Position numbers and translations under genes: made by a program
In this document: piece after piece, positions 3,913-20,305 of the stretch
How the letters are laid out: every line of letters starts with the position of its first letter
Position numbering within the stretch: position 1 is the first letter of the stretch
Virus record (IMG/VR): IMGVR_UViG_3300014914_000538
Coordinates: 1-24,094 of that record
Origin: a virus
Length of the DNA stretch: 24,094 nt
Direction: 5' to 3' (one strand)
Notes under the pieces: generated by a model
Databases searched by the model: none
Seen by the model: only the letters and a program-made list of their open reading frames with translations
What the model was told of the DNA's origin: nothing

Positions 3913-3918
3913 GAATTC

Positions 3919-3928
3919 TTAAATATAA
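3919..3928 (+). promoter_or_regulatory. Archaeal TATA-box-like promoter element TTAAATATAA
   Basis: Lies in the intergenic gap, about 27-36 nt upstream of ATG 3955. The same motif recurs in other gaps. Confidence 0.55.
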
Positions 3929-3954
3929 TCTTCAAAATCTTATAAGTGATAAAG

Positions 3955-4269
3955 ATGAGCAGAATCGAAATAGTAAGAGGAGATAGAAATTTCTATTTGG
4001 AATTTACGATTCTAGACGCAGATGGAAATGCAGTAGATTTAACAAATGCTACTCCTAAACTAAAGTGGAAAAATTATTCAGATGGAAGTGTTAACTGGAT
4101 AATAGGAGAAGTTGTTAATGCAATAGAAGGTACTTGCAGGTTTTTAGTTCAAGATGAATTTTTAGGAGTTACTGGTGAGTTTAAGGCAGAAATAGAGATT
4201 ACGTATTCAGATGGAAAAATAATTACTGCTCCTAATTTATGTATAAAAGTTATTCCTGATCTTGCTTGA
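3955..4269 (+). CDS. BppU N-terminal-like Ig-fold protein (virion structural)
   Basis: IEIVRGD...LEFTILDADGNAVDLTNAT...GTCRFLV...GEFKAEIEITYSDGKIITAP matches the BppU/DUF2479-like pattern. ATG 3955 is preferred over GTG 3946. Confidence 0.65.
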   Translation: MSRIEIVRGDRNFYLEFTILDADGNAVDLTNATPKLKWKNYSDGSVNWIIGEVVNAIEGTCRFLVQDEFLGVTGEFKAEIEITYSDGKIITAPNLCIKVIPDLA

Positions 4270-4278
4270 GGAATTAAT

Positions 4279-4602
4279 ATGACTGATTGGGTAAAGGAAG
4301 TTGAAAAAGAGAAAGAAAAAATTAAAAAATGGAAGATAGAAGACAGACTAAGCTACTTAGCTAAACTTACTTTCATGAATGGAACAGTTGCTTCTTCAGT
4401 AGCAGGATGGCAACAGTGGCTTTCTAATGCAATTACTATGCAAAACTTCTCAGAAGAAGAATTGAAGAAGTTAGTAGATGAATTTGAGAAAATAACTCTT
4501 GCCTTCTTAGATCTTGACATTAAATATACAAAGTTTCTGAAAAACAGATTAGAAAAGAAAAAGAAGAAAGAGAATAAAGAGCAAAAATCTTATATCTCGT
4601 GA
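4279..4602 (+). CDS. DUF2153-like small helical protein
   Basis: DWVK...DRL...WQQWLSN...FSEEEL...LDLDIKYT resembles the archaeal DUF2153 family (WVK, DRL, FDQWL, LELDIKHT). Recognised by eye only. Confidence 0.55.
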   Translation: MTDWVKEVEKEKEKIKKWKIEDRLSYLAKLTFMNGTVASSVAGWQQWLSNAITMQNFSEEELKKLVDEFEKITLAFLDLDIKYTKFLKNRLEKKKKKENKEQKSYIS

Positions 4603-4607
4603 TAAAA

Positions 4608-7600
4608 ATGTCTCTAAAAGTTCTAGGAACTCGAGGAGAAATTGAGGAAACCTCGAAAAAACACAAGAAACATTCTGGTATTTTAATAGACGATGTTCTC
4701 TTCGACTTGGGCGAACCTATTTATCTTGATTTACATCCGAAAGCGATATTTCTTTCCCACCTACATCCAGACCATTATTTTCCAGAAAAGTATAAGAAAG
4801 AAAAAAATCCATTGAGAGAACATAGCAAGATTCCAATCTATAGTATTGAGAAACCCAGAGGAGCAGAGAATTGGATAAAACTTGAGAAGGGGAAAGAATA
4901 CAAAGTAAATGATTTAATAGTTATTCCAATTCCGACTGTTCATAGTAAGAAAGTAAAAACTACAGGGTTTCTAATCAAAACAAAAGGGAAGCGGATTCTT
5001 TATACTAGTGATTTATTATGGATAAAGAAGAAATGGCATGATAAGATTAAAGACCTAGATGTTGTAATAACGGATGGTTCTAGTTTCGATAGAGACTTAA
5101 TAAGAAGAGATAAAGAAACCGGACAACCTTATGGCCATGCATCAGTTAAGAAACTAGTTAAGTTCTTTAAGGATAAAGGAGCCAAGAATATAATAATTAC
5201 TCACTATGGAAAATGGCTTGTCGAAGAGCCTAAAAAGGGATACATAAAAATAAAAGAACTAACAGATGAAAAGACAAAGGTAATTCCTGCTAAAGATGGA
5301 GATGAATTCTCCTTGGAAGAATTAATAACTACTGAAGAAATTAAACCTATGATTCCTAAAGTAATTGCTAAAATTAAGCCTAAATGGGGTTTATATTTAG
5401 TAAAGCCTCATGGAGAGCTTATTGCTTCTGGCAAGAAAAAACTTATAGTAAAATCTAAACGTTTCGAATCTCATATTAATGAGCCTTTGTATCTTTTGGA
5501 AGATAACCTTTGTTGGGGTATTATTTCCTTACAAGCTCCAGAAAAAATCTCCTGGGAAAAGTTCCTAGAACTACAAGAGAAGCATTTAATCTCTGAAGAA
5601 GAAGTTGAAGACTGGAACTGGAATAGAAACAACTTATATGCATATGAATTTCAGGTTCTGAAAGTTTTTGATCCTCCTCTTCCTGTTAAAGTTCCAAAAG
5701 GAGTTCAGGTTTTCGTTTCAAGTAAAAAGTTAAAATGGAAGAAGGAGTTTAGTCTCTTAGATCTACTTTCTTATGAAACAGAAATCCCCGAAGTTTTCTT
5801 AGAAATCAGAGAGGAGTTAAGTTCTAGAGGAGTCTCGTATCACTTAGAAGGTTTGATCAAAGAGAGTACAAAAGATTGGGTTAAAAGCTACATAAAGAAT
5901 CTTGAAAAATATACTAGAGCTCAAGTAGGTGATGATTGGAGAATTGTCTTAGGCTGGTATTCTTCTCTTAAGAGAGGAAAGAAACTGTACAAAGGAAAAG
6001 AGAAGATCCCGATTACTATCAAAGATTGTCAAGAGATAGGACTAGCAATTGTAAAGGAACTTATCAAAAGAGGTTGTACATTTAATGCTCCTTCTACTTA
6101 TAAGAAATATGCAAGAGAACTATTCGAATGGATAATAAAGAAAATAGGTGGAATAGAGAAAATACCTTGGAAGAAAGGACAAAAGCCTGAGAAGTTAGAG
6201 AATAAAAAGATAGATCCGAGTAAAGTTACCAGAGAACAGTTAGAGTTTATAGATGCTCCTTATTGTAAGTCTTTAAGTGATAAAGAACTTAAGGCTCTAA
6301 ACAAGCGCTTGCATGAACTATATCGTAAGATAGGGAAAGTAATAGAACCTCTAGAGAATGCTCATATCTTTACTTGGAATGAAATGAGAAGAAGAGGGAT
6401 ACCTCAAGAAATCTGGGATGGTCTAACAGAAGCTACAGCTTTAGAGGTTATCGAATATCCGGAACCTGAGTTTGGAAAACCTCAGAAGGTTCTTTCTGCT
6501 GACGAAGAAAGAACTTTGGAAGAAATAATTAATAGTTTTCCTGATAAAATCGAGATAAACTTTCCATATCATATTTACTTAGTTGGTGGAGTAGTTAATA
6601 GAGAAAAAGACTTGAAAGATCATGATATTGATCTTCTATTTAAACAGCCTTATCCTTTCATAAATCCTACTATCAAGAGTTTTCTTTATCAAATAGCACA
6701 AAAAGATCCAAAGTTAGCAGAGAAACTTCATTTAGTTTGGGATCCTCATGGTCCTCAAATTGGTTATTGTGTTCCTCTGTATAAAATGACTTTTGAAAAA
6801 GTTCCTGCTAAATATAGAAAGAGAAGTTCTCCTTATGAATGGCTTTCTGAGGTTCCTAAATTATTTAAGCCGAGTATAGGTATGAAACCTAGATCGGGTC
6901 TTCATAAAAATGAATTCTTTGATGTCAAAGAAATGTGGGAAAAATGGGGTAAGAAATTTATTGATAGAGGAATAGTCGTTCAGAAGAAATATGATGGTAT
7001 GAGATTTCAAATTCATGTAAAAGGAAATAAAGTAGCTTGTTTCACAGAAGATAGGAAACGTGATAGAGCTAGTGTCTTTAAGAAATCAATTAAAGAACTT
7101 CTTCAGAAGAAAACAGCAGATAACTTTATCTTAGATGCCGAAATGGTGGAATACGATTGTCATGGAAAAGAAGTGAAGAATGAGTTAGAAAAGATTTGTA
7201 CTCCACTTAAGAGAGAAGATATGATAAAGTGGATAGGGGCAACTAAGAAAGGTCTTGATGACGAGAATGTAGTTTTTCATGTTCATGACTGTCTTATGAT
7301 TAATGGAGAACCTATTCATAACAAAGGCTGTATAGAAAGATGGAAAGCTATAAGGAAATGCTTCCCTGATAAACTAAAACACTGGTCTCGAGTTCCTTCA
7401 GAATTGGCTACAAATGCGAAAGAGTTCTTTAGAGCTGTAGATAAAATGCGATCGATTCCTGGTTCAGAAGGTGTAGTATGTAAAGCTGCAGACTCTCCAT
7501 ATAGAATAAAGTTTAAGGGAGAAAATAGGCCTGACTACTGGTGTAAATTGAAGAACTTGAAAGAAATAGATGTTATGGTCTATAAAGTAATTCAGAAGAA

Positions 7601-8237
7601 AACTAAAGAAGGAAAGCCTTTGGATCAATACCTTTATGTTTCTGCCTTTAGAATACCATGTACTATGTATGAGAAATTCAAACCAGATAAAGTCTTCAAG
7701 AAAGGTGGAAAGTGTTATTCAATAATTGGAAGAACTTATGCTACTTCCGAGAAATGTAAACCAGGAGATATAATTACAGTAAGACCTATTAAGATAGATC
7801 ACTTTGAAGACAAAAAGACTGGGAAAATCTGGTATGTTTGGATGTTCCCACTTTATGCAGGTAAACATCCTGCTAAGAAAGAACCAGATTCCTTAGATGT
7901 GGTGAAGAAGATAGAAGCTGTAGGAACTGGACCAACCAAAGAACAAAGAGTAACTCTCTCTAAGTTAGTCTTCAAATTAGAGCCTTGTCCCTTCTGGAAT
8001 GATGAAAGGATCTGTCCTTTCAAGACAAGATTCTTCATACCTAGGGATAAAGAAAAGAAAGAACTTTCTGAGAAAATTGATAAGATAGAGATAGAATACC
8101 TTAAATTCCCGATAGTTTGTCGGTTTGCTAATGTGTATAGATGTAGGTTCGTAAAGCCTTATTATTATGATATAAAAGAGTTTAAGGTAAAAGAAATAGA
8201 TGAGGATACAGGTGAAGAAATTGAAGATAACTCCTAA
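4608..8237 (+). CDS. Multidomain protein: MBL-fold hydrolase + ASCH + helical repeats + Pol-beta-like nucleotidyltransferase + ATP-dependent ligase (adenylation + OB) + Cys-rich C-terminus
   Basis: MBL HLHPDH (4758-4775), YTSD, GHAS and ITHYG. ASCH GLYLVKPHGELIASGKK (from 5382). NTase YLVGG..DHDID (6576-6632). Ligase motifs KYDG (6987-6998), ILDAEMV, HVHDCL, EGVVCK (7467) and WCKLK (7539). GTG 4599 is an alternative start. Confidence 0.85.
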   Translation: MSLKVLGTRGEIEETSKKHKKHSGILIDDVLFDLGEPIYLDLHPKAIFLSHLHPDHYFPEKYKKEKNPLREHSKIPIYSIEKPRGAENWIKLEKGKEYKVNDLIVIPIPTVHSKKVKTTGFLIKTKGKRILYTSDLLWIKKKWHDKIKDLDVVITDGSSFDRDLIRRDKETGQPYGHASVKKLVKFFKDKGAKNIIITHYGKWLVEEPKKGYIKIKELTDEKTKVIPAKDGDEFSLEELITTEEIKPMIPKVIAKIKPKWGLYLVKPHGELIASGKKKLIVKSKRFESHINEPLYLLEDNLCWGIISLQAPEKISWEKFLELQEKHLISEEEVEDWNWNRNNLYAYEFQVLKVFDPPLPVKVPKGVQVFVSSKKLKWKKEFSLLDLLSYETEIPEVFLEIREELSSRGVSYHLEGLIKESTKDWVKSYIKNLEKYTRAQVGDDWRIVLGWYSSLKRGKKLYKGKEKIPITIKDCQEIGLAIVKELIKRGCTFNAPSTYKKYARELFEWIIKKIGGIEKIPWKKGQKPEKLENKKIDPSKVTREQLEFIDAPYCKSLSDKELKALNKRLHELYRKIGKVIEPLENAHIFTWNEMRRRGIPQEIWDGLTEATALEVIEYPEPEFGKPQKVLSADEERTLEEIINSFPDKIEINFPYHIYLVGGVVNREKDLKDHDIDLLFKQPYPFINPTIKSFLYQIAQKDPKLAEKLHLVWDPHGPQIGYCVPLYKMTFEKVPAKYRKRSSPYEWLSEVPKLFKPSIGMKPRSGLHKNEFFDVKEMWEKWGKKFIDRGIVVQKKYDGMRFQIHVKGNKVACFTEDRKRDRASVFKKSIKELLQKKTADNFILDAEMVEYDCHGKEVKNELEKICTPLKREDMIKWIGATKKGLDDENVVFHVHDCLMINGEPIHNKGCIERWKAIRKCFPDKLKHWSRVPSELATNAKEFFRAVDKMRSIPGSEGVVCKAADSPYRIKFKGENRPDYWCKLKNLKEIDVMVYKVIQKKTKEGKPLDQYLYVSAFRIPCTMYEKFKPDKVFKKGGKCYSIIGRTYATSEKCKPGDIITVRPIKIDHFEDKKTGKIWYVWMFPLYAGKHPAKKEPDSLDVVKKIEAVGTGPTKEQRVTLSKLVFKLEPCPFWNDERICPFKTRFFIPRDKEKKELSEKIDKIEIEYLKFPIVCRFANVYRCRFVKPYYYDIKEFKVKEIDEDTGEEIEDNS

Positions 8238-10488
8238 GATAATTAATTGGCTAGAACTTCTTGCTAAAGCTCCTCCTAAGAAAGGTGAGGGAGGAGAAGG
8301 CGGGTTCTTTCTTGCACCCTATATGGAATATCCTACTTGCAAGAAATGTAAATACGTTATGCAACATCATTGGAGAGGAGCTAGTGTTCATACTGACTGG
8401 AGAATGGAAGTAAACGACCATCTAGTAGGTTGGACTGTATTAGATAATCCAAAAGGAACTCCTACTGTTACTACAGTTAAAGAAGCTAGAAAAGTCTTTA
8501 ACGAATGGAAAAGTAAATTCAAATTCCGACCAGAGAAAAAGAATATTGGCTTAAGAGCAGAAACCAAATGTCCTTCAGAAGTTTGTGATGAATGGACTTA
8601 TTCTATAAAAGGAATCAAAGACGGTCAAGTCTTTATTGAGTATAAAAATATAGAAAAGCTTTCTTTAAGAACTTTAGAAGAATTAGCTAGACAACCTAAA
8701 GTTTGGTTAAACGTAGAAGGGATAGTTAAACCAGGAGAAGTAGGAGCCACGAAAGAATATCCTGGAGTTTTCTATATCATCGATAAGGGTCAAGTTTACT
8801 TTGGTGCTCAAAAACCTTACTTCCATGAGTACTTTATTAAATCAGAGAAGAAAGATGGTGTTTTCTCTAAGAAAGATTGGACAAGAGTAATAGTAAGAGC
8901 AGTTAATGTGAATATAATTGATCCAGAAACTAAGAAGCCTAAACCAGGGACAGAACTAATGTGGAGGATCTTGATTCCTGGAGATCAAACTCCGTATTGT
9001 CTAAAAAGAGGAATGAAAAAGAAATGGGTTCCACCTAAGAACTATATCCCAGTTCCACCAGAATGGAGAAAGGGAGAGCTCTATGAGAAATGGTATGAGT
9101 GGGTCAAAGAACAATGGAAAGGTGGCAAGAAAAGCAAAGAAAGCAAAAGTGAGCTGGCAGAAGCTAGTTTTGTTGTTCATTATCTATCTTGGATGGGTCC
9201 AGTACACGTAAGAGGAATACCTAGAATGAGATGGTTATTAAGATTAAAAGAAGGAGGCAAAGTAAGATCGTTCATTTCTGATTATGACTTTACTAGATTC
9301 CAACCTGTTCCTTTGACTGACGAAGGATATGTAGCTTCTAAGTGGTTTGATTATGAAGGAGAAATTAAGCCAGGAGAGAATCCAACTTATAATCCTACTA
9401 AAGAACTGAATGCTAAAATGAAAATAATTGACAAAGGAAAGGTAAATGTTAAAAGTGAAAAAGTAAATGGGACTGAGAAACTAATTTTAGAAATGAAAGG
9501 AAAGAAGTTAAAAGGTACGTTTGCTCTAATTCAAGAAGAGAAAGGTTCTAAAATCTATACTTGGAAAGTAGAAAAACTTAGTAATTTGAAAAAGGCTAAA
9601 TTTGTCTTACAAATTCATGAAATAGAAACACCAGAAGGTTTGAAAAAACATTGGGACGTTAGAGTTTCAGATGGCTGGGAATTTAATCTCTATGGAAATC
9701 CCGTAGAGCTTGAAAAAGGTGAAGGTGTTAAGGCTGTATATAAAAGATGTTTGAATATTGAGAAATGGATGAATATCAAAAAGCCTAAGACTAAAATGAT
9801 GATAGGTAACTTGATTACTTATGTCACTCCTATAGATGAGGGAGATGTAAGTATAATTGAATACAAACCACCAATATTTATCTCAATGGAATTTCATGGA
9901 AAGAAATTAAAAGGCTATTATGTCTATATAGAGAAAGATAAAGAAGCTGTCTTTAAGAAAGCAAAACTCCCTGAACCACTTTCTGGAACAGGAGATCCAA
10001 CAACAGGAGATTATTACAGACCTTTCAAAGTAGAGAAAAAGAAAACATGGGATTACTATTGGTTGTATCTTTACGATATTGGAGAATTTACAAGATGTGT
10101 AAAAGATCCTGAGAAATATATCCCTGCTTTGAAAGATAGGCCAAAAGAAGTTCTTGATGTCCTAGTGTGTCTTTATCCAAGACCAGGTACTATTCATGGA
10201 GCAAGAGTATGTGGGTTGAAAATATCAGAAGAATGGTCAGTAGATAAAGCTAGTGAGTGGATAAGGAAGAATAAGTTACATACTTGGGAAGGAGAATTAA
10301 TAAGAGAGCAAAGAAAGAAAACAGAAAGTGAGTTAGAAAAAGAAGTTGACTCTGCAGTACTTAAAATCTTAAAAGAGATAGAAAGAAAGGCATCAGAGAA
10401 AGATACTGAAGAAGAAAAGTTGAAAAAGGAGTTGCTTAAAAAGAAACTAGAATTAATAGAAAAATGGTTGGAGGTTAATAAGGAATGA
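8221..10488 (+). CDS. Protein with three tandem LigD-type 3'-phosphoesterase (PE) domains, an unknown domain and a C-terminal coiled coil
   Basis: PE1 YVMQHHWRGASVHTDWRME and PE3 FVLQIH...HWDVR match the LigD_N Q-x-H...H-x-D-x-R motif. PE2 is degenerate. C-terminal DxG motifs occur in all three domains and G-K-K-L-K-G in PE2 and PE3. TTG 8221 follows GGTGA at 8211-8215; ATG 8200 is an alternative start. Confidence 0.8.
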   Translation: MKITPKIINWLELLAKAPPKKGEGGEGGFFLAPYMEYPTCKKCKYVMQHHWRGASVHTDWRMEVNDHLVGWTVLDNPKGTPTVTTVKEARKVFNEWKSKFKFRPEKKNIGLRAETKCPSEVCDEWTYSIKGIKDGQVFIEYKNIEKLSLRTLEELARQPKVWLNVEGIVKPGEVGATKEYPGVFYIIDKGQVYFGAQKPYFHEYFIKSEKKDGVFSKKDWTRVIVRAVNVNIIDPETKKPKPGTELMWRILIPGDQTPYCLKRGMKKKWVPPKNYIPVPPEWRKGELYEKWYEWVKEQWKGGKKSKESKSELAEASFVVHYLSWMGPVHVRGIPRMRWLLRLKEGGKVRSFISDYDFTRFQPVPLTDEGYVASKWFDYEGEIKPGENPTYNPTKELNAKMKIIDKGKVNVKSEKVNGTEKLILEMKGKKLKGTFALIQEEKGSKIYTWKVEKLSNLKKAKFVLQIHEIETPEGLKKHWDVRVSDGWEFNLYGNPVELEKGEGVKAVYKRCLNIEKWMNIKKPKTKMMIGNLITYVTPIDEGDVSIIEYKPPIFISMEFHGKKLKGYYVYIEKDKEAVFKKAKLPEPLSGTGDPTTGDYYRPFKVEKKKTWDYYWLYLYDIGEFTRCVKDPEKYIPALKDRPKEVLDVLVCLYPRPGTIHGARVCGLKISEEWSVDKASEWIRKNKLHTWEGELIREQRKKTESELEKEVDSAVLKILKEIERKASEKDTEEEKLKKELLKKKLELIEKWLEVNKE

Positions 10489-10832
10489 AGATCTTCAAAG
10501 ACCCAGATTTAAAGGAAGAAATAAAAGCTATTAACTTTGGTAAAGTAAAAGTTGGTCAGAGTAAAGAAGTTACTGTTTGGCTTCTTAATGACTCAAAAGG
10601 GATTCTCACTAATTTGGCTTTTGAGTTTTCTAGTCCGTTGCCACCTTCTGAAAAAATAGAAGTAGTGAAAGCGCCTGTCACAATTCAACCCGGAAAAGCA
10701 GAACCTTTAACTCTAAGATGGAGACCTTCTGCTAAGTTTGAGCAGGCTCTTGAAATTGGAATTAGAGTAACTGGAGAAATAGTTTATGTTGCAAAAAGAA
10801 AAATAGAAGTAGAAGAGGAGGTTAAGAAATGA
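10485..10832 (+). CDS. Single Ig-like (ASH/PapD-like) domain protein
   Basis: INFGKVKVGQSKEVTVWLLND...TIQPGKAEPLTLRWRP fits the ASH/choice-of-anchor-D Ig pattern. ATGA overlap with the upstream gene. Confidence 0.6.
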   Translation: MKIFKDPDLKEEIKAINFGKVKVGQSKEVTVWLLNDSKGILTNLAFEFSSPLPPSEKIEVVKAPVTIQPGKAEPLTLRWRPSAKFEQALEIGIRVTGEIVYVAKRKIEVEEEVKK

Positions 10833-11323
10833 TAGGTATAGTTTCAGTCTTTCAGGTACATGACTTATTCGAAACAGATCCAAAATTGATTGAGAAAATA
10901 ATCTCTTTCTGGAGACTTAACATGAAAGCTTTCGGTGTAAAGAAACTGATTATAGTTAACATTGATGACCTTCCTGTTACTTGTGGGGATCTTGAAATAG
11001 AATTTGAAGTCTATAATACTCTTGAAGAAGTCCTAAAGAAATACTCAGATTATACTTTTGTCTTCCTTGAGTGTGCTCAGCAAATAGAGGGAATAGACTT
11101 TATACCTCTTAAGAGCTTTGAGCATCCAGCAGATAATGTTTTGTATGTCTTTGGTTCTGACTACTCTGTTCTCAATTTATCTGAGTTGAAAGAGAAGGGG
11201 TATTTAGAGGGTAACTTTGTAGTCTCGATTGAGACCGGATCAACAATACCTCTATGGGCTCACACTGCAATGTCTATAGTTCTCTATGACAGGAAGGTGA
11301 AACTAAGTGACAGTAACGAGTAA
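10829..11323 (+). CDS. SPOUT-superfamily (SpoU/TrmH/TrmL-like) methyltransferase
   Basis: WRLNMKAFGV (motif 1-like), VLYVFGSD (motif 2, around 11141-11161) and VSIETGSTIPLWAHTAMSIVLYDR (motif 3-like trefoil-knot region). Confidence 0.65.
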   Translation: MIGIVSVFQVHDLFETDPKLIEKIISFWRLNMKAFGVKKLIIVNIDDLPVTCGDLEIEFEVYNTLEEVLKKYSDYTFVFLECAQQIEGIDFIPLKSFEHPADNVLYVFGSDYSVLNLSELKEKGYLEGNFVVSIETGSTIPLWAHTAMSIVLYDRKVKLSDSNE

Positions 11324-12872: not shown

Positions 12873-12873
12873 G

Positions 12874-12884
12874 TTTAAATAAAA
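12874..12884 (+). promoter_or_regulatory. Archaeal TATA-box-like element TTTAAATAAAA
   Basis: Intergenic, 30-40 nt upstream of ATG 12914, with a GGTGA SD (12904-12908) in between. Confidence 0.6.
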
Positions 12885-12913
12885 AAATAAGTTAAAAGTA
12901 GTAGGTGAATTTA

Positions 12914-15097
12914 ATGGCTATATCTGATGAATGGAACATAGATGCTTTAAACAAAAGGATTTATACAACTTCTGGTCCCTCGACCTTTACTGTTAATGAT
13001 CTTTATTCTTGGCTAATGGATGAGTTCGACAGCCAACAATACATGGACGATCCTATACCTATGACTGCTCAGACACCTACAGAGTATACTTTAGTAAATG
13101 GCTGGTTTATTGATGAAAATTCTCTTAAGTACCTCAAAGGTGGTGCTATAAAGACTGATGGTTGGAATGAAGAGATTTACATTCTCTATTTACAATCTTC
13201 TGGCTATACAGACTGTGTTTCAGGAGACATTGGTAAATACGTTCAAGATGGTGGAGGAGACTTTGGTGTTCTATTATGGTACAATAATACAAAGAGAAAG
13301 TGGTGGATAAGAAAAACTGGTACAATTCCCTCTTGTGGAACTTCTATCTCAATCAATGGAGGAACTGGTGCTGGTACTCTCTTGTCTTCAAATTGTTCGA
13401 AAACGGGAGAAGATCTTTATGCAAACATCTACACCCTAGGTACTATTGAGTCGGGTACTAACATTTATGTTATACAAGCAGGAGAAAGGTATCCTACCTA
13501 TTGGGGTATTGGGAGTGAGTGGTGGCCTGCAGGGCACATTGATATTCTTGTTAAAGTTAAAGAAGCTGGTACCGAGGTTGACAATGGAGTTGTTACTGTT
13601 TATGGCAGAGAATATACGGATTACTATGACTTCTATGAAATTGACTTATCTGCTGGTGGTAGAAATGCTGTACCTTTGGCTACTTCAAATGACTTGGACA
13701 ACCAGACTGCAGAGTCTACTGTTGCTAATTATATAGAAAAGATCAAAGTTTGGTTTGTCCACGGAGATTTAGCCTACGACACTGGTTCAGGCACTCTACC
13801 AACTAATGTAGTATCACATGTCATCCATGACACTGCTTCACATGCTGTTGGAGTAGTTTTAGAACAAGTTTCTGGTGGTACAGTCTCTGGTACTTTTAAG
13901 CTTGGAAACACATCTGGCACATTTAATGATAATGAAGCTTTAGAGTTCTTGTCAGAATTGCAGTTCAACAATCCTTCAGGCACATTCTATGTAGGAGATA
14001 CAGTTACAGGAGAAAGCTCCAATGCTCAAGGAATTATCAGATATCTAGACCAAATAGATGGAGCAACAATAGGTTGTCTTTATCTTTCAGATAGAAATGC
14101 TAATGACTTCCAAGATGGAGAGAACTTATTAGTTTCTGGAAACACTATTGCTAAAGCTTTAGGGACTCAGACAGACTATAACTGGTCTGGGCAAACTGCT
14201 GGAACTTTGGTATTCGATAATACAATTAACAAAGACATAGACGATGGCCAAGGAGCGAAACCTTATAGTGTAGTCATAGACTTAGGCTCGAAAACTGTTG
14301 CTGAGTTATATGAGTTTGTGAAATATCTTTGTAGAAGAACTTCTAATTACATCCTTTATCCAACTGATGGGTCTTCAACTATCTATCAAATAGTGGGAGA
14401 GCAATATCAGAAAGCAGATACTTCTTATACACAAGTAAAGAAGACATCACCTCTAGGTACCTTTGCTGGTGGCAAGTTCTTTGGTGCTAGAGGAGTCTGG
14501 ATACAAAATATGGATATCAATGATATCAGAAACTATCAGTTAATAGATCATAATAACTCAACTCATGATCCTCCAAACTGGCAATCTTATGTGGTGACAA
14601 ACTTAGTTTCTGGAGACAGAGTAGCAATCTTTCCAACTACTGGAGCAGGATCTGAAACAATTAATAAGTCTCAGTTTACTCTAGCCGGTCAAAGTTCTGG
14701 TGTGGATTATATCCAAGTACAAGAATCAATTCCTGTAGATACTCCATATAAAGAAGAAGACATGCCAGGTGTTATTCGAGTTAGATATAATGTAGGACAA
14801 CCTACTGAAGGAGAAGATATCTATGCATACAACTCAATAGACTTTGACAACAAGAAGTTCATGATACAAGGAACAACTTCAAGAGCTTATACTTCTTCTG
14901 ACAAGGCCTATGTACCTTATCTTGATAGACAAGCAGATGCTTCTCAAGAGTCAGTAACAGTAAAGTATATAGCCGATAGATATGTCTTAGTAGTAGTCAG
15001 AAGGAAAGGAATAATCCCATTCCAACTAGCAGCTACTTTCACTGATACAGGATTGAGAGTTTCAGCGATTAGAACTTCAGATGGAATTGTGACTTAA
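12914..15097 (+). CDS. Large putative virion structural protein
   Basis: 730-codon Gly/Thr/Ser-rich ORF. It contains GTFYVGDTVTGESSNAQG-type modules seen in phage structural proteins and shares modules with both neighbours. ATG 12914 is preferred because GTG 12905 lies within the SD. Confidence 0.55.
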   Translation: MAISDEWNIDALNKRIYTTSGPSTFTVNDLYSWLMDEFDSQQYMDDPIPMTAQTPTEYTLVNGWFIDENSLKYLKGGAIKTDGWNEEIYILYLQSSGYTDCVSGDIGKYVQDGGGDFGVLLWYNNTKRKWWIRKTGTIPSCGTSISINGGTGAGTLLSSNCSKTGEDLYANIYTLGTIESGTNIYVIQAGERYPTYWGIGSEWWPAGHIDILVKVKEAGTEVDNGVVTVYGREYTDYYDFYEIDLSAGGRNAVPLATSNDLDNQTAESTVANYIEKIKVWFVHGDLAYDTGSGTLPTNVVSHVIHDTASHAVGVVLEQVSGGTVSGTFKLGNTSGTFNDNEALEFLSELQFNNPSGTFYVGDTVTGESSNAQGIIRYLDQIDGATIGCLYLSDRNANDFQDGENLLVSGNTIAKALGTQTDYNWSGQTAGTLVFDNTINKDIDDGQGAKPYSVVIDLGSKTVAELYEFVKYLCRRTSNYILYPTDGSSTIYQIVGEQYQKADTSYTQVKKTSPLGTFAGGKFFGARGVWIQNMDINDIRNYQLIDHNNSTHDPPNWQSYVVTNLVSGDRVAIFPTTGAGSETINKSQFTLAGQSSGVDYIQVQESIPVDTPYKEEDMPGVIRVRYNVGQPTEGEDIYAYNSIDFDNKKFMIQGTTSRAYTSSDKAYVPYLDRQADASQESVTVKYIADRYVLVVVRRKGIIPFQLAATFTDTGLRVSAIRTSDGIVT

Positions 15098-15111
15098 GAG
15101 AGTGAATAGCT

Positions 15112-15327
15112 TTGAAGTTTAAAGATCCAAATGGAAGAATACGAGAAGGACTATATTTCAAAAAAGTGAAGTTTGCTGTCAAAGATGCAGTAAACAACGA
15201 CACTCTTAAGCTAGAAGAGTATGTAGAAGTAATGATCAAAGGCAGAAATAGAAAGTGGATTCAGTGGTATAAATACAAAGAATTCAAGGAACTTAATCCA
15301 AGTATAGTGATACAGAATGACAATTAA
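15112..15327 (+). CDS. Small hypothetical protein
   Basis: TTG start with a GAGTGA-like SD upstream. It fills the gap between two genes and overlaps the next start. No family recognised. Confidence 0.5.
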   Translation: MKFKDPNGRIREGLYFKKVKFAVKDAVNNDTLKLEEYVEVMIKGRNRKWIQWYKYKEFKELNPSIVIQNDN

Positions 15328-16471
15328 TTTCCTTCCTTCTATGAAATGGATCCAAATCCTTTCTCAAAAGTTTACTATCTCAGAGGCAACAGTTGGATCC
15401 AATACAGTTACTGTAAATGAAACTATTCCTGCTGAGACACCTGATGAGGGACAAATAAGTCTAGCTTTGTCAAAAGCAGAATGTATGGGGACTGTAGATC
15501 TCTCGGGAGGACATGATTGGTCCTCCTCTCCTGAAAATTTTTATGTTTATTCTAAAGCTTCTTATAATCAGTTTACTCAAGTTACTCTTAATCAGAATTG
15601 TCCTGATTTAGATTCAATCGTAAGTCATATTAATCAACAACTCTCTTCCCCTTTTCCACATAATCAATACTTAGAGGCTTTTCATAATGGAGAAAGAGTT
15701 GGAATAAGATACAAGGAAGGATATGAAGGTGATGTCTATGCCTTTAGACTTAAGCCGGGGACTTCAGATGCTTTAGCTACTTTAGGATGGCCTGCTGGAA
15801 TTTATGTTGGAGAATCAGATAGATATGAATATTCTTCTTGGTCAGGGCAAAACTTTATTTTAAAAACTTCTTTAACAAGAACTTATACTCCTGGATATAA
15901 AGCTACTGTTCATCCAATAGAAATCGATGTTCAAGATATTTATAATCAAGCTATGGATTGGGCAGATAATCCAGAAGGGATTTCTTACTCTTGTCCGATG
16001 TCAGCAACAGGATATGCTCCTCTTGGAGGAAATGTTTATACGGATAAGATTTTCATGCTTACGAATGGATGGAAGCTAGCTCCTGAGGAAGGAAATTATA
16101 GATTAGTTTTAATCGGAACCATAATAACTGACGATGGTTCTGAAAGGATTGTCCTTCCTGGAGCAGGAGTTATTTCTATTACTTTTCAGGTTTCTTCTCA
16201 AGGAATTATCTCTATGACTTCTGGCCTTACTGAAAGTGACAAAACAGATATAGCTGAGAAAGTCTGGGATGTTGAAGATGGAAGTACAGTTAAGAGTAAA
16301 ATAGAGAACATAGAGAGTGATGTAACTCTTCTGAAGAAGGTAGAAACTGGAAGATGGAAGATAGAAGGAGATTATCTAATAATTTATGATACTGATGGTC
16401 AGACTATACTTAAGAAATTCTTGCTCAAAGGAGAACAGAAGAAAGCTTATTCAGAGAGGGTTCCTGTTTAA
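15317..16471 (+). CDS. Putative virion structural protein with nested domain insertions
   Basis: Shares two modules with the 12914-15097 protein. It has an IAEKVWD motif and a C-terminal GRWKIEGDYLIIYDTDG motif of the kind seen in phage structural proteins. Confidence 0.55.
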   Translation: MTINFLPSMKWIQILSQKFTISEATVGSNTVTVNETIPAETPDEGQISLALSKAECMGTVDLSGGHDWSSSPENFYVYSKASYNQFTQVTLNQNCPDLDSIVSHINQQLSSPFPHNQYLEAFHNGERVGIRYKEGYEGDVYAFRLKPGTSDALATLGWPAGIYVGESDRYEYSSWSGQNFILKTSLTRTYTPGYKATVHPIEIDVQDIYNQAMDWADNPEGISYSCPMSATGYAPLGGNVYTDKIFMLTNGWKLAPEEGNYRLVLIGTIITDDGSERIVLPGAGVISITFQVSSQGIISMTSGLTESDKTDIAEKVWDVEDGSTVKSKIENIESDVTLLKKVETGRWKIEGDYLIIYDTDGQTILKKFLLKGEQKKAYSERVPV

Positions 16472-16935
16472 TGAGTATAGTAACTAAGGGACTAGGTGGT
16501 TCTTCTCTTATTACTCAAGGCTATGGCTGGCTTAAATGGATAATTAAAGTTATTAAGAAAATAATTACTAGAGTAATTCCTGTTAGACGAAGAAAGTTCA
16601 GAGAAACAATTAAAGTCTTTGGTGATAAAGTATTTCCCTACAAAAGTTTTGTTTTAGTTAAAGGAGCTCCTTTTTCTCCTTTCTTTTCTAAGTTTCTAAT
16701 TACAGGCTTTCCGTCTTTAAGTTTTAGTAAAAGTCTTTCTTTAATTGGTTCGACTTCTATTCCTTTTGCTCATAAGTTCCCTCTAAGAGGGATCCTTTCT
16801 TATCCCGTAAAAATGGAATTAAGTCTAACGGGAAACTTAGTAGTTAGATTTGAGGAAGAATTAAGTTGTATTGGAAAGAAGGACTTTACTCCTATTCTAT
16901 GGGAGATATTAGATGATGAAGAAGAACTTAAATAA
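16471..16935 (+). CDS. Putative fibre/appendage protein with 14-residue repeats
   Basis: TAATG overlap. N-terminal IVTKGLG..LITQGYG motif, followed by seven repeats with Gly every 14 residues. Confidence 0.55.
   Translation: MSIVTKGLGGSSLITQGYGWLKWIIKVIKKIITRVIPVRRRKFRETIKVFGDKVFPYKSFVLVKGAPFSPFFSKFLITGFPSLSFSKSLSLIGSTSIPFAHKFPLRGILSYPVKMELSLTGNLVVRFEEELSCIGKKDFTPILWEILDDEEELK
16594..16887 (+). repeat. 7 x 14-aa (42-nt) degenerate protein repeat with invariant Gly
   Basis: Gly at residues 51, 65, 79, 93, 107, 121 and 135 of the ORF. Units are KFRETIKVFGDKVF, PYKSFVLVKGAPFS, PFFSKFLITGFPSL, SFSKSLSLIGSTSI, PFAHKFPLRGILSY, PVKMELSLTGNLVV and RFEEELSCIGKKDF. Confidence 0.8.
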
Positions 16936-16937
16936 AA
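16928..16937 (+). promoter_or_regulatory. Archaeal TATA-box-like element TTAAATAAAA overlapping the upstream stop codon
   Basis: Lies 33-42 nt upstream of TTG 16970, with a GGTGA SD at 16959-16963. Confidence 0.55.
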
Positions 16938-16969
16938 ATATTCAATTCTTTAAGAGTAGGTGAGAGATA

Positions 16970-18934
16970 TTGGATATTTCAGACTCATCTGGAATATTTG
17001 ATGTAATTAAAGCTGAGAGAGAACAATTAGAAAGATTATTGAAAACGGCTAAGAATATTACTCATGAGAAAGTAGAGTTTTCTCTTCCTTTTATTTCATT
17101 AGAAGAGAAAAAGGAGAAATTAATAATTTCGGGAGTAGCCTTGACTGAAGGAGTCTGGAAAAATGTTCTTTATCCGAAAGAGGAAATAGCGAAAGCAGTT
17201 AAGAGACTAGAGGGCAAACCTTTGAAAGTTGAACATGGTTTAGATGAACACTTTAAGGATAGAACTGTTGGCAAAGTCTTAGAAACTTATTATGATCCTA
17301 CTCTTAGGTCCTTAATCTTTAAGGCAGAAGTTACAGACCCAGAAGCTATTAAGAAAGTTAAAGATGGAACTTTCCCAGCAGTCTCTTGTTCAACTTGGTT
17401 AGACAAGTTCCCAATTAACTCTGAACAGTCTATAGGCTTTAATTACTTGTTCAACGAACTTTCTCTCGTAAAGTCTCCTGCATGTGATAAGTGTTTCATA
17501 TTTGCAGTAGAAGAACTGTCAAAAAGATTAAATATAAATATTGAAAAGAAAGAGGCAGTGGAAAAAATGTCAGAAAAAGAAGAAAAAGAAGAAGTCCTTG
17601 AAGAATTGAAAACTGAGGAAGAAGAGGAAGAGGAAGAGGAAGAAGAAATCGATCTCTCTGAAATAGAATCACCAAAACTCTATGCTGTTGTTGAACTAGA
17701 AGATCTTTCTGAACTAGAAGAGAATGCAAGAAAGAAAGTAGTGACTTATTACTATGGCTATAGATATCCTTATCCATACTATGGCAAATACCCATATCCA
17801 TACTATCCGTATTACCCATACTATCCTTACAAGCCAAAGAAGAAAAAGAAAGCAAAGAAACCAGAGAAGAAATCTCTTTGGGCTGTCTTAGAACTTGAGA
17901 GTCCTGAAGAAGTAGCAGAACTTAAGAAAAGAGGTAGAAAAGTAGTTTCAGTGTACTATGGCTATTATGGATATCCTTACTACAAATATCCTTACTACGG
18001 CAAAGGGCAATATCCTTACTATGGATATCCTTACTATCCTTACTACGGTAAATATCCAATGCCTAAGTCTGATGCAGACAAAGAAGACGAAGAGGAAGAA
18101 GAGGAAGAAGAAAAAGAAAAAGAAGAGAAACAAGAGAAGGAACCAGAATATAAATGCCCAGAAGGACAAGTTTGGGATCCTGAGCAGAAAAAATGTGTAC
18201 CTAAACCAGAAGAGAAATCAGCAGAAGAAGAACTTTTAGATCTTCTAGAATTAGCAGGTAATTACAAAGACTTTATGAAAAAGTGTATGAAAGAAAAGGC
18301 AGAAGAAATTCCGGATGTTGTTAAGAGAATGAAAGCTTGTGCTGCTGAATGGAAAAAAGAACAGAAGTCTGCTACAATTGAAGAACAAACAGAAGAAATA
18401 ACTAAGTCTCTTGAAGAGAAGTCGGCAACAGATATAAAGGAGTTAGGGAATGAAGTACCTGAGGTTACTAAAATGGAAGAAGCTCCTCAAGAAAAGAAAC
18501 CATGTCCTGAAGAACCTTGTGCTGAAAAGAAAGAGGAAATCAAAGAAGAGACACCAAAGGCAGAAGAAAGTAAACCAGTCGAACCTAAAGTCGAGAAAAC
18601 CGAGGAAATTCAAACAGAAGAGCCTAAACCAGAAGTGAAAGAAGAAATAGAAAAGACAGAACAACCTGTGGAACCTAAACCAGAAGTTAAAAAAGAGGAA
18701 GTAGCAACTCCAAAGGTAGAAGAGCCCAAAGTTGAATCTAAGCCTTCAGAAGAAAAACCCATAGAAGAGAAACCTGCAGAAACTAAGCAAGAAGAAACAG
18801 TCCAAGAAGAAGCTCCAAAAGCTGAAGAGCCTAAAGAAGAAAAGAAAGAACCTACTCCAGAAGAACTAGAGAAATTTGTCAGGGAAAACTACCCTGAGAT
18901 CCTTCTTGAGCTAATCAAGAAGAAAAAATTCTAA
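16970..18934 (+). CDS. Prohead (maturation) protease fused to scaffolding protein
   Basis: The N-terminal ~185 aa carry HK97/assemblin-fold protease motifs (ISGVALTEG, KPLKVEH, FPAVSCS, NELSLVKSPAC). They are followed by acidic, Tyr/Pro-rich and Pro/Glu/Lys-rich low-complexity regions. The gene lies just upstream of the capsid gene. Confidence 0.85.
   Translation: MDISDSSGIFDVIKAEREQLERLLKTAKNITHEKVEFSLPFISLEEKKEKLIISGVALTEGVWKNVLYPKEEIAKAVKRLEGKPLKVEHGLDEHFKDRTVGKVLETYYDPTLRSLIFKAEVTDPEAIKKVKDGTFPAVSCSTWLDKFPINSEQSIGFNYLFNELSLVKSPACDKCFIFAVEELSKRLNINIEKKEAVEKMSEKEEKEEVLEELKTEEEEEEEEEEEIDLSEIESPKLYAVVELEDLSELEENARKKVVTYYYGYRYPYPYYGKYPYPYYPYYPYYPYKPKKKKKAKKPEKKSLWAVLELESPEEVAELKKRGRKVVSVYYGYYGYPYYKYPYYGKGQYPYYGYPYYPYYGKYPMPKSDADKEDEEEEEEEEKEKEEKQEKEPEYKCPEGQVWDPEQKKCVPKPEEKSAEEELLDLLELAGNYKDFMKKCMKEKAEEIPDVVKRMKACAAEWKKEQKSATIEEQTEEITKSLEEKSATDIKELGNEVPEVTKMEEAPQEKKPCPEEPCAEKKEEIKEETPKAEESKPVEPKVEKTEEIQTEEPKPEVKEEIEKTEQPVEPKPEVKKEEVATPKVEEPKVESKPSEEKPIEEKPAETKQEETVQEEAPKAEEPKEEKKEPTPEELEKFVRENYPEILLELIKKKKF
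17675..18058 (+). repeat. Duplicated module ending in Tyr/Pro/Gly-rich tracts
   Basis: KLYAVVELE...RKKVVT-YYYGYRYPYPYYGKYPYPYYPYYPYYPY (17675-17830) and SLWAVLELE...RKVVSV-YYGYYGYPYYKYPYYGKGQYPYYGYPYYPYYGKYP (17873-18058). TATCCTTAC recurs at the DNA level. Confidence 0.9.
18475..18860 (+). repeat. Pro/Glu/Lys-rich low-complexity linker (PKAEE, PVEPKVE, PKPEVKEE, PKVEEPKVE)
   Basis: Imperfect short peptide repeats in the C-terminal part of the scaffold. Confidence 0.75.
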
Positions 18935-18958
18935 GCTTCTCTCTAAAGAGGAAGGACG

Positions 18959-19195
18959 ATGTCAGAAGAAAAATCTCTAGAAGAGCAAATCAAAGAACTT
19001 AAGAAAGCAGTAGAGAGTCTTGTTGAAATCCAAAAAATGCAAATTCAGCAACAGGTTTCTAAACCTTCAAATACAGAAGTAAAAGAAGATCAGCCTAGCA
19101 GAGAAGAAATAGAAGAGATGCTTCGAGAATACGATGTAGCTGAACTCTTGCACTATGCCCTTAAGCATGATCTTATAAAAAGAGGAAGAGAATAG
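18959..19195 (+). CDS. Small coiled-coil protein, probable second (mini) scaffolding protein
   Basis: GAGGAAGG SD. N-terminal heptad pattern (SLEEQIKELKKAVESL). The C-terminal helix resembles the end of the protease-scaffold. It lies between the scaffold and capsid genes. Confidence 0.6.
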   Translation: MSEEKSLEEQIKELKKAVESLVEIQKMQIQQQVSKPSNTEVKEDQPSREEIEEMLREYDVAELLHYALKHDLIKRGRE

Positions 19196-19205
19196 TAAGG
19201 ACTAC

Positions 19206-19217
19206 TTTTAAATATAA
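19206..19217 (+). promoter_or_regulatory. Archaeal TATA-box-like element TTTTAAATATAA for the capsid gene
   Basis: In the 75-nt gap before the MCP start, with a GGTGA SD at 19258-19262. Confidence 0.6.
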
Positions 19218-19270
19218 TTCTTTCTTTCTATATTACGTACTCTTGTAAATATACAAGGGTGAATATAAAA

Positions 19271-20305
19271 ATGAAAAGTTTAGAAGAACTGGCAAGTACA
19301 ATAAGTGTCTCTGCTATCACAGACTTGATACCAAAGGTTATCCTTGATGAAGTAGAAGAAGCTGCAAGGGCTCGTAGATTTGGTCGTAACTTGGTCCGAA
19401 TAAATGAAGACCTTGTTAGGACTAAAGGGCGTTCAATAGTAATTGGACGCAGAGGAACCTTGACAGCTCAAGATGTTTCAGAAGGAACAGAACTATCTAG
19501 CTCCAAAATAACTTATACTTCTAATACAATTACGCCCTCAAAGAAGGGTGTGGCAGTGCACATAACTCAAGAAGCTATAGAAGGCTGTGAACTTAACCTG
19601 ATAAGGGATGCGGTCACAGAAGCAGGAATTGCTTTGGCAGACAAAGAAGACTCTGATATTATGAAAGCATTGCTGGATTATACAGAGGATGCTCATACCT
19701 TTGGAGCTGCAGGAACTGCGACAATATCTGGCGGAGCTCTTGTCTATGTTGAAGAGTCAGAAAGTAACTTTGTAAAGGCAGATTACTATGATGGCAAAAT
19801 AGTTGCTTCAGGTGCTTGTACAATAACTTATTGGCAATCTGCTCATGGTAAGAGTTACTGTGTAGATGCTCTCTCTGAAGGCACTTGGTCAGTGAATGGC
19901 TATAAAGCAATAGTCAAAGCAGTAACAGCAGTTAAAGCAAGAAAATGGCGTCCTCAGTTCATAGTAATTCATCCTAATGCTTTGGGTGGAATTCTGAAGA
20001 GCAATATGTTCATTGATGCTGCTAAATATGGAACTAATGAACCAATAGTCAATGGTGAGATAGGTAAGATAGCTGGTCTGAAAGTCTTGGTTACAACTCA
20101 AATGCCTGATGGAGCTGCTCTAGTTATAGACCCAACCAGAGCTGCTTGGTTTGCAGTAAGAAGAAGGCTAGATATGAAGAGATGGGATAATCCTGCAACT
20201 GACTCGATAGAACTATACTTCTATGTGGAGTATGGTGTCAAGGTAACAGACAAAGATGCTCTGGAACTGATAGTTAACATAACAGACGGTTCAGCTGATC
20301 TTTAA
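19271..20305 (+). CDS. Major capsid protein, HK97 fold
   Basis: LIPKVILDEVEEAAR (N-arm/F-loop), DVSEG (E-loop), TITPSKKGVAVHITQE, IVIHP, GEIGKIAGLKVLVT and YGVKVTD follow the HK97-family motif order. ATG 19271 is preferred because GTG 19259 lies within the SD. Confidence 0.92.
   Translation: MKSLEELASTISVSAITDLIPKVILDEVEEAARARRFGRNLVRINEDLVRTKGRSIVIGRRGTLTAQDVSEGTELSSSKITYTSNTITPSKKGVAVHITQEAIEGCELNLIRDAVTEAGIALADKEDSDIMKALLDYTEDAHTFGAAGTATISGGALVYVEESESNFVKADYYDGKIVASGACTITYWQSAHGKSYCVDALSEGTWSVNGYKAIVKAVTAVKARKWRPQFIVIHPNALGGILKSNMFIDAAKYGTNEPIVNGEIGKIAGLKVLVTTQMPDGAALVIDPTRAAWFAVRRRLDMKRWDNPATDSIELYFYVEYGVKVTDKDALELIVNITDGSADL

Follow-up and report, generated by a model that had tools for sequence, protein, structure and literature searches.

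The 24,094-bp window, which is the whole of one contig (C6) of a 335-contig, 1.87-Mb metagenome-assembled genome (MAG), is best explained as belonging to a tailed virus of thermophilic archaeal type, whose late (virion) operon it carries. An original prediction, made from the sequence alone, had noted a recurring x-x-Leu-(Ser/Ala) motif at domain boundaries of two multi-domain enzyme proteins and in the head proteins of this window, and had proposed cutting after Leu by a prohead protease. Analysis of the two enzyme proteins, a DNA ligase protein and a protein with three LigD-type phosphoesterase (PE) domains, showed that Leu followed by Ser or Ala, L-[SA], is a real, non-random, oriented and conserved feature of their flexible linkers. 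The full motif, hydrophobic-Glu-(Glu/Gln)-Leu followed by Ser/Ala, could be the recognition site of a virus-encoded protease that cuts after Leu; this picture as a whole is tentative, and we hold it with less than even confidence. The main features are as follows:

4599..8237, + strand: 1212-aa multi-enzyme ligase protein (Pfam, AlphaFold2 (AF2), Foldseek)
8200..10488, + strand: 762-aa triple-PE protein (AF2, profile search)
16970..17524, + strand: prohead-protease-like domain, residues 1-185 of its open reading frame (ORF) (PHROG, DUF2213, invariant columns)
17525..18934, + strand: scaffold-like remainder of the protease ORF (alignment of 10 homologues)
19271..20305, + strand: HK97-fold major capsid protein (MCP) (Pfam Phage_capsid_4, 66.5 bits against a cut-off of 27; PHROG major head protein)

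Leu-Ser/Ala is enriched in the linkers of the enzyme proteins

As the real claim was a positional one, both enzyme proteins were modelled with AF2, using alignments of 53 and 31 homologues. The predicted local distance difference test (pLDDT) value was 82.8 for the PE protein and 80.6 for ligase residues 1-1200. Linkers were defined as stretches with pLDDT <50, which gave 12 internal or terminal segments comprising 6.6% of residues:

Ligase protein, low-pLDDT stretches (AF2): residues 244-259, 415-419, 534-536, 615-635, 747-750, 1114-1125 and 1151-1164
PE protein, low-pLDDT stretches (AF2): residues 7-35, 310-317, 460-463, 591-594 and 705-713

The linkers held 7 of the 19 L-[SA] dipeptides in the two proteins (binomial p = 1.3 × 10−4). 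Inside the low-pLDDT stretches lay ligase L632, L749, L1120 and L1156 and PE L21, L460 and L594, while PE L319 and ligase L242 bordered such a stretch. For the tetrapeptide [EKD]-x-L-[SA], whose enrichment in linkers over folded domains had been suggested as a check, 6 of 11 instances fell in linkers (p = 2.8 × 10−5), in line with the prediction. L-S was the most linker-enriched of 256 dipeptides with at least three occurrences (6/12, p = 5 × 10−5, Bonferroni ~0.013; runner-up 0.01). Shuffling of residues within the linkers of the window's two proteins gave an expectation of 1.6 L-[SA], against 7 observed (p = 5 × 10−4).

The same pattern was found in related proteins. The comparison sets comprised 10 related IMG/VR loci, 83 PE, 44 ligase and 22 protease-scaffold homologues, and 150 capsid-family representatives. 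In the linker columns of the enzyme homologues, L-[SA] occurred at ~3-fold over expectation (>100 homologues), also at <45% identity, and within-linker shuffles for homologues of <60% identity gave 76 expected against 185 observed. The reverse dipeptide, [SA]-L, was not enriched (70 observed, 76 expected). L-S ranked fourth of 363 dipeptides in homologue linkers, the top three being due to a Cys-rich mini-domain that interrupts one PE linker. Because the homologues are related, these counts represent a handful of ancestral, kept sites, and not hundreds of independent events. An explanation of L-S as a helix N-cap or hydrophobic staple was dropped as a general one, since strand, coil or helix follows the conserved sites in the AF2 models with no common pattern.

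Such a list could also arise by chance, from a dipeptide common in Lys/Glu-rich proteins whose boundary instances were picked post hoc. All 17 motif instances named by the original prediction were in frame at the nucleotides given, and its caveat that L-S/A is common and the evidence positional was apt: raw counts were unremarkable, and the signal lay in position. The four proteins had 7.6-11.5 L-[SA] per 1000 aa, compared with 12.7 in the MAG background (448,000 aa, long ORFs of the MAG's other contigs), and [EKD]-x-L-[SA] totalled 15, compared with 13, 10 and 10 for order-permuted versions. With L-[SA] below background and the loose tetrapeptide at the level of its permuted controls, simple over-representation was rejected as evidence. 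Shuffling of each protein gave p = 0.027 (ligase) and 0.003 (PE), and was not significant for the protease-scaffold protein and MCP. Only the tight form, EEL[SA], stood out: all four proteins had one copy, where 0.33 was expected (p = 2 × 10−4), though this test was post hoc. A polarity-based linker proxy, applied to the MAG proteome, yielded only a baseline (S/A after L in 12.5% of polar contexts); it was dropped as too crude to tell linkers from domain surfaces in these Lys/Glu-rich proteins.

Overall counts at or below background, and the fact that most L-[SA] dipeptides of the PE and protease proteins had been listed in the original prediction, are consistent with chance or composition. 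The scan of all dipeptides nevertheless ranked L-S first for linker enrichment, neither within-linker shuffles nor reverse-order controls reproduced the pattern, and it persisted in distant homologues. A chance origin is largely refuted, and we regard it as highly improbable.

Conservation of individual enzyme sites

The AF2 model of the ligase protein comprises an N-terminal metallo-hydrolase domain, labelled MBL (residues ~1-243), a beta-rich domain (~260-375), a helical domain (~420-614), a small alpha/beta domain (~636-746) and the adenylation and OB domains of an ATP-dependent DNA ligase (~751-1113), followed by a four-Cys module. Pfam assigned Lactamase_B_2 (E 1 × 10−14) and DNA_ligase_A_M (E 5 × 10−23), and the best Foldseek matches were archaeal and human Lig1-type ligases and ELAC-type MBL. 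The ASCH and NTase labels given earlier to intervening domains were not confirmed by Pfam, which returned no matches for the unassigned sub-domains of the ligase and PE proteins. The C-terminal module (window 7986-8150) is of zinc type, with invariant C1130, C1139, C1174 and C1182 and two low-confidence loops, and had no Pfam match.

The PE protein comprises a disordered N-terminus (7-35), PE1 with an insertion (~36-309), PE2 (320-457), PE3 (464-587), an unassigned domain (596-704) and a helical tail (709-759), as modelled by AF2. A profile of 53 PE homologues was compared with known structures. PE3 matched the archaeal LigD-type phosphoesterases 3P4H (E 8 × 10−12) and 3P43 (E 4 × 10−9), and PE1 and PE2 matched 3N9B and 2LJ6 weakly (E 0.002). 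The Pfam LigD_N match of the protein was below its cut-off, and a protein atlas search with the C-terminal domain gave no matches.

Conservation in homologues had been suggested as a further check, and its outcome was divided. Six linker sites were kept in 50-88% of homologues:

6837..6848, + strand: EWL-S, ligase L749; linker 747-750, directly before the adenylation domain; conserved
7950..7961, + strand: VTL-S, ligase L1120; linker 1114-1125, after OB; L-[SA] kept in this linker (L6) by 22/44 homologues
8058..8069, + strand: KEL-S, ligase L1156; loop 1151-1164 of the module, flanked by its two Cys pairs; no domain boundary
9148..9159, + strand: SEL-A, PE L319; end of linker 310-317, directly before the first PE2 strand
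9571..9582, + strand: EKL-S, PE L460; linker 460-463, between PE2 and PE3; conserved
9973..9984, + strand: EPL-S, PE L594; linker 591-594, after PE3 and before a conserved ..GDP; L-[SA] in this linker (C) in 42/79 homologues

The best-conserved ligase site was L1156, whose aligned column has L in 100% of homologues and L-[SA] in 88% (loop L7, 38/44 homologues). At L749, L-[SA] was present in 73% at the aligned column and in linker L5 of 32/44 homologues, divergent contexts included. PE linker B (L460, ~12 residues) kept L-[SA] at one of two positions in 62/81 homologues, and linker A (L319, variable length) had it in 45/83, usually just ahead of the PE2 core.

The remaining enzyme sites were as follows:

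5313..5327, + strand: LEEL-I, ligase L242; borders linker 244-259 after MBL; P1′ Ile; not conserved
5811..5822, + strand: EEL-S, ligase L407; within helix 397-409 (AF2), not a linker; L-[SA] in 8% of homologues
6486..6497, + strand: KVL-S, ligase L632; long linker 615-635; not conserved
8254..8265, + strand: ELL-A, PE L21; disordered N-terminal segment 7-35
8653..8688, + strand: EKL-S and EEL-A; insertion inside PE1; short helices 151-154 and 159-162 (AF2)

Ligase L242, L407 and L632 and PE L21 were unconserved. Linker 244-259 had any L-[SA] in 12/41 homologues; for L632, L-[SA] was found in 13% at the aligned column and in the linker of 11/44. Linkers L1-L4 of the ligase kept it in 7-12 of ~40 homologues each. 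At PE L21 the Leu was semi-conserved, with Lys at P1′ in most homologues and L-[SA] in 2% at the aligned column (19/74 in the segment). The PE1 insertion was itself found in only ~25/83 homologues, and a cut there would split PE1, because the Ala is a residue of ARQPK, a conserved motif in the PE fold. On this evidence about six enzyme sites are under selection, and four claimed sites are not. The claimed location at domain boundaries thus held as enrichment in linkers but not site by site: EELS at 5811 lies in a helix, the motifs at 8653 and 8677 lie inside PE1, and KELS at 8058 lies in a loop of the module.

Some further features of these proteins were observed. Linker 244-259 (window 5328-5375) has a motif of its own, T-T-E-E-(I/V)-E-P-(I/V)-(S/T)-P-K, in most of 41 homologues, which is unrelated to L-S. 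The ligase C-terminus (window 8190-8234) carries an acidic tail, (I/V/L)-D-E-D-T-G-E-E, conserved in all close homologues, which may possibly be a docking peptide. Many of the PE proteins P0012-P0045 insert a Cys-containing mini-domain (..LPFAGYKNFADCV...AYCGAIK..), sometimes with a second C-x-x-C unit, in the PE1/PE2 linker (window equivalent 9127-9150); it is absent from the window.

The motif in the protease-scaffold and capsid proteins

The head sites were as follows:

17510..17521, + strand: EEL-S at the protease-domain end; strongest candidate site; variable linker after
17648..17659, + strand: IDL-S; end of the acidic linker, just ahead of the first PKLYAV scaffold unit
17699..17710, + strand: EDL-S; scaffold; partly conserved (NLS, NFS, ALT, SLS and SLA variants, absent in several)
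18245..18256, + strand: LEL-A; start of the scaffold ..DYK.FMKKCMKE helical domain; conserved, folded-looking block
19283..19294, + strand: EEL-A, capsid residues 5-8; conserved 7-residue island, then 5-8 variable residues, then a conserved N-arm

Upstream of the capsid gene lies a 654-aa ORF whose N-terminal domain resembles prohead proteases. PHROG head maturation protease families matched 9/10 and 7/10 members (best E 7 × 10−5 and 4 × 10−5), Pfam DUF2213 matched 7/10 (best E 6 × 10−4, 17 bits against a cut-off of 22) and Peptidase_S78_2 matched 1/10 (E 0.14). No match was found in NCBIfam, nor in a profile search of the PDB. His89 and Ser139 (ORF numbering) were invariant in 10/10, lie 50 residues apart and are aligned in the homologue P0092. 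They are a putative catalytic pair, presumably equivalent to the catalytic pair H65/S114 of HK97 gp4.

The motif was predicted to lie exactly at the end of this domain, and there E-x-L-S-K was indeed invariant in 10/10. In 21 further homologues the junction read (V/K/M/T/R)-E-(E/Q/K)-L-(S/A), with E at P3 in 21/21, L at P1 in 21/21 and S at P1′ in 20/21, the sequences diverging afterwards. The 17648 site, x-D-L-(S/T)-E, had L-[S/T/A] in 18/22 homologues and I-[ST] in three more, and the 18245 site had L-A in most of 10.

For the capsid gene, the listed GTG start (19259) was rejected, as it falls within a ribosome-binding site, GGGTGA. The most likely start is ATG 19271, which has the GGGTGA 9 nt upstream and where the homologues all begin MK.LEEL, so that the N-terminus would be MKSLEEL and not MNIKMKSLEEL. 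The EEL-A that had been predicted at this N-terminus was conserved in 10/10 loci. Most representatives of the capsid family, even at <50% identity, start M-K-x-(L/I)-E-(E/Q)-L. Among 60 representatives (50% clustering), P4 was L/I, P3 was E in 38, P2 was E/Q in 56 and P1 was L in 59, while P1′ was A31 Q8 T7 S5 G3, with E and I also occurring. From the junction and capsid patterns, E-(E/Q)-L followed by a mostly small residue is common to two independent canonical substrate positions.

The scaffold-like part is of low complexity. Its acidic linker leads to two Tyr/Pro-rich units and a Cys-containing helical domain, after which a spacer rich in Lys, Glu and Pro precedes a basic C-terminus, ..LIKKKKF. 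The two units (window 17675-18060) are copies of L-Y/W-A-V-x-E ... KKVV-x-YYGY followed by Tyr/Pro/Gly tracts; they are kept in 9/10 homologues, some of which have three or four copies. The basic C-terminus, ..PE.L..L.KKKKF, is likewise conserved. Upstream of the protease, a 154-aa protein contains EEELS, which was not conserved and was set aside.

The conserved residues could, instead, be structural or docking residues that are never cut, with Leu-Ser/Ala acting as anchor of the next domain, as a hinge or as a binding motif. MKSLEEL would then be an acidic N-arm helix that docks on the scaffold at its basic C-terminus, and the protease domain would have EELSK as its final structural element. 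Such a role would suit the conserved basic scaffold end and acidic MCP N-terminus, and a capsid P1′ that accepts Q, T, E and I. In the enzymes, the PE2 and PE3 Leu residues are homologous, lying 4-5 residues before the F-V-(V/L)-(Q/H) core strand; the ligase L5 site lies inside an aromatic-rich conserved block, SP(F/Y/W)E(F/Y/W)L; and L1156 lies within the four-Cys module. A structural role would, however, leave Ser/Ala after Leu, and the lack of enrichment of the reverse order, unexplained. The sites share no secondary-structure context, with strand, coil or helix next, and lie in segments that AF2 cannot place (pLDDT <50), and the minimal solved PE domain begins at the core strand, without the upstream Leu (3P4H alignment). 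We consider this account rather unlikely, although it is a serious competitor.

The enzymes are associated with head morphogenesis

The window and 10 related loci have the gene order protease-scaffold then MCP, and in five relatives (L002, L003, L006, L009 and L011) ligase-PE lies directly upstream of protease-scaffold-MCP. The ligase and PE genes lie inside the structural operon, with structural genes on both sides. The two ORFs overlap by 38 nt (8200-8237) in different frames, as in four related loci, which may possibly reflect translational coupling or an occasional frameshift fusion. Some relatives fuse ligase and PE in one protein of ~1700-1880 aa (e.g. P0288, P0295, P0304). Among the fused proteins of ~1850 aa, three have ..SEL-S.. 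at the junction, and no consistent L-[SA] was found at the junction of more distant ligase-PE fusions. Overlap or fusion was observed in P0284, P0288-P0290, P0295 and P0304.

Proteins of MuF type belong to the head and carry effector domains. In three distant homologues of the window's PE protein, PE domains are fused to head-morphogenesis domains. P0092 comprises MuF (313-426), PE, a PE-like domain and a C-terminal protease-type domain that is homologous to the window protease domain (hhalign 96.7%, E 4 × 10−10). P0107 (N-terminus without assignment) and P0112 (C5 DNA methyltransferase) each have PE followed by an XkdF-type prohead protease domain (Peptidase_S78_2). Profile comparison of the window protease with the XkdF-type domain of P0112 showed no relation (probability 0.7%). 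Fusion to MuF or peptidase domains was seen in these three proteins and not in the window's two enzyme proteins. At least two unrelated enzyme domains occur among the virion genes (MBL, ligase and others; 3 × PE), as in proteins of polyvalent type. Gene context and homologue fusions thus support a tie between the enzymes and head morphogenesis.

It may be that only the head substrates, protease-scaffold and possibly capsid, are cut, the ligase and PE proteins being unpackaged intracellular late enzymes whose linker motif is unrelated. Conservation is by far the strongest at the two head sites, the enzyme sites are looser at P3/P2, and the window's enzymes have no MuF or other known targeting domain. 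This restricted version leaves aside a linker enrichment that is itself significant and oriented in the enzymes, their place inside the structural operon, and their homologues' fusions to MuF and protease domains. We judge it improbable.

Possible processing by the encoded protease

An oriented dipeptide in variable, unstructured linkers, echoed at the protease-scaffold junction and the capsid N-terminus, is most economically read as a short linear motif recognised by the encoded protease. E-x-L-S/A recurs where the protease domain ends, at the MCP N-terminus and in six conserved linkers of the enzymes, whose P3/P2 positions are looser. Packaging, cleavage and the register of the cut are what we infer from this pattern. 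The protease would release itself from the scaffold at VEEL-SK, cutting after L, make a second cut in the scaffold at xDL-S, and trim the capsid protein by seven residues (MKSLEEL). The MBL-ligase and triple-PE proteins would be packaged as head-internal 'polyvalent protein' cargo and cut at about six exposed-linker E-x-L-S/A sites, namely ligase L749, L1120 and L1156 and PE L319, L460 and L594. A T4-like register, with the cut after Glu (L-E-E/L), was less consistent with the data, since a quarter of the capsid proteins have Gln at P2 and the Leu is invariant.

These steps are not equally probable. The cuts in the head proteins as a group are, in our estimation, evenly balanced, as is self-release at EEL-S by itself, and N-terminal trimming of the capsid by itself falls a little short of that. 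That the enzymes are head cargo and are cut at their six conserved sites seems unlikely, if well worth considering. As a protease-site reading, the scheme is plausible and strongest for the head proteins, and weaker for the cutting of the enzymes into single domains, a claim of the original prediction that proved too tidy, because two sites lie inside PE1 and the best-conserved ligase site lies inside the zinc-type module. The broader scheme, in which the lineage packages a DNA end-healing and sealing kit (MBL nuclease, ligase and triple 3′-phosphoesterase) as polyproteins that a clan-SH-like, Leu-P1 protease cuts at linkers, is more doubtful still.

Several observations weigh against processing. 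The motif in its loose form is not over-represented overall, and the conserved sites (~6-9) represent few independent events. Four claimed enzyme sites are unconserved and two more lie inside PE1; a cut at L1156 would split the zinc-type module, as the site sits inside it; and part of the PE recurrence is inherited from domain duplication, given the Leu placed 4-5 residues before the core strand in both PE2 and PE3. No conserved N-terminal propeptide site was found in the ligase or PE protein, the ligase having no candidate site near its N-terminus, and Pfam scans of the window's two enzyme proteins found no MuF or other recognised head-targeting domain. The opposite charges of the scaffold C-terminus and MCP N-terminus would suit docking as well. 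The capsid P1′ is variable, and a 7-residue propeptide would be unusually short. The family assignment of the protease comes from weak profile matches, below the curated Pfam cut-offs and absent from NCBIfam. Characterised prohead proteases cut after Glu and take off N-terminal propeptides (PMC10052503). Even without cleavage, an unusual oriented dipeptide kept in otherwise variable linkers still needs explaining.

Relation to known systems

The T4 prohead protease follows the rule L/I-x-E. As in T4, phiKZ, 201phi2-1 and SPN3US, the proposal here is of one viral protease and a short motif common to capsid, scaffold or core, and cargo. In T4, phiKZ and SPN3US the cut is after Glu and mostly removes N-terminal propeptides, and the SPN3US motif is A-x-E with Ser at P1′ (PMC10052503). 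Ser favoured at P1′, late genes for the putative cargo and a protease that would also cut itself are points in common with this type. The invariant residue is Leu here and Glu there, and the proteins of that type lose N-terminal propeptides with no separation of enzyme domains. In the herpesvirus assemblin-scaffold precursor, a serine protease forms the N-terminal part and the scaffold follows it. Its release and maturation sites are Ala/Ser, the release site lies exactly at the protease-domain end, and the scaffold C-terminus contacts the capsid protein. The window protein is similar in its fusion to a scaffold and its conserved candidate release site at the domain end, with Ser at P1′. It differs in P1, which is Leu here and Ala in herpesviruses, which are viruses of eukaryotes.

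The 80alpha capsid protein is cut by a host Prp-type cysteine protease after Phe. Short N-terminal trimming of an HK97-fold capsid protein without a delta domain is known for 80alpha (14 residues) and 0105phi7-2 (~10) (PMC10219371). The hypothetical cut here would be 7 residues in, after Leu.

Polyvalent proteins of phages and conjugative elements carry several unrelated enzyme domains per polypeptide and occur in virion-gene context, with links to MuF or portal domains and to peptidase domains that were proposed to process them; their delivery together with the DNA is predicted (Iyer et al. 2017, PMC5512222). The survey proposed processing by in-chain zincin-type peptidases, and contained few archaeal cases and almost no large ones (PMC5512222). 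DNA/RNA ligases were not linked to polyvalent proteins there, and a term search of the survey found no LigD-type phosphoesterase (PMC5512222). The window's enzymes resemble this type in having unrelated enzyme domains in one chain among virion genes. Links to MuF or peptidase domains are seen in homologues, not in the window's two proteins, and processing is proposed here by a prohead protease, rather than by zincin-type peptidases. Like bacterial LigD, they combine an ATP-dependent ligase with a 3′-phosphoesterase end-healing module. Unlike LigD, they form two proteins (fused in some relatives) with PE triplicated, no primase-type polymerase domain, and extra MBL and other domains, and the genes are viral and lie in a structural operon.

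Protease-processed head cargo and polyvalent proteins are already known; new here would be the Leu-P1 rule, the archaeal lineage, and DNA end-repair cargo that is cut between domains. If the proposal were true, this would be the first cleavage rule of a capsid-maturation protease of archaeal tailed viruses, with Leu at P1, compared with Glu (T4, phiKZ) or Ala (herpesviruses). The polyvalent strategy of head-delivered effectors would extend to archaea, where it is thought rare, and the cargo delivered would be of a new class, enzymes of DNA-end repair and not anti-restriction or host-takeover factors, so that ready-made repair enzymes would enter the host with the genome. The public data hold >1000 relatives of the capsid protein, from an uncultivated virus group. 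For this large group the motif would predict mature protein ends, and it suggests thermostable single-domain ligase and phosphoesterase fragments.

Lineage and genomic context

The long ORFs of the contig are on the + strand throughout, and head-tail adaptor and tail genes follow the capsid gene (PHROG annotation). Homologue labels include Ignisphaera, Aenigmatarchaeota and Jordarchaeales, and many homologues contain inteins, which together suggest an archaeal, largely thermophile-associated virus lineage. The contig has a GC content of 35.5%, compared with a MAG median of 40.5% (5th percentile 37%), and values of 49-60% are reached by further large contigs of the bin. Because the contig falls below the 5th percentile and the bin is heterogeneous, it is unsafe to assign a host by binning. 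A terminase match in the same MAG lies on a contig of 49% GC (C3) and does not belong to this virus. Searches of genome contigs with the capsid alignment and with P0092, and of viral contigs with P0092, gave no matches. Inteins in relatives were found in the ligase (one beside the adenylation motif KKYDG, a second within the OB/C-terminal region) and in the PE protein, as in L002:2-4783, L012:1-3189 and 3176-6265, L008:3-1736 and many further homologues with PF14528/PF14890, whereas the window copies are intein-free.

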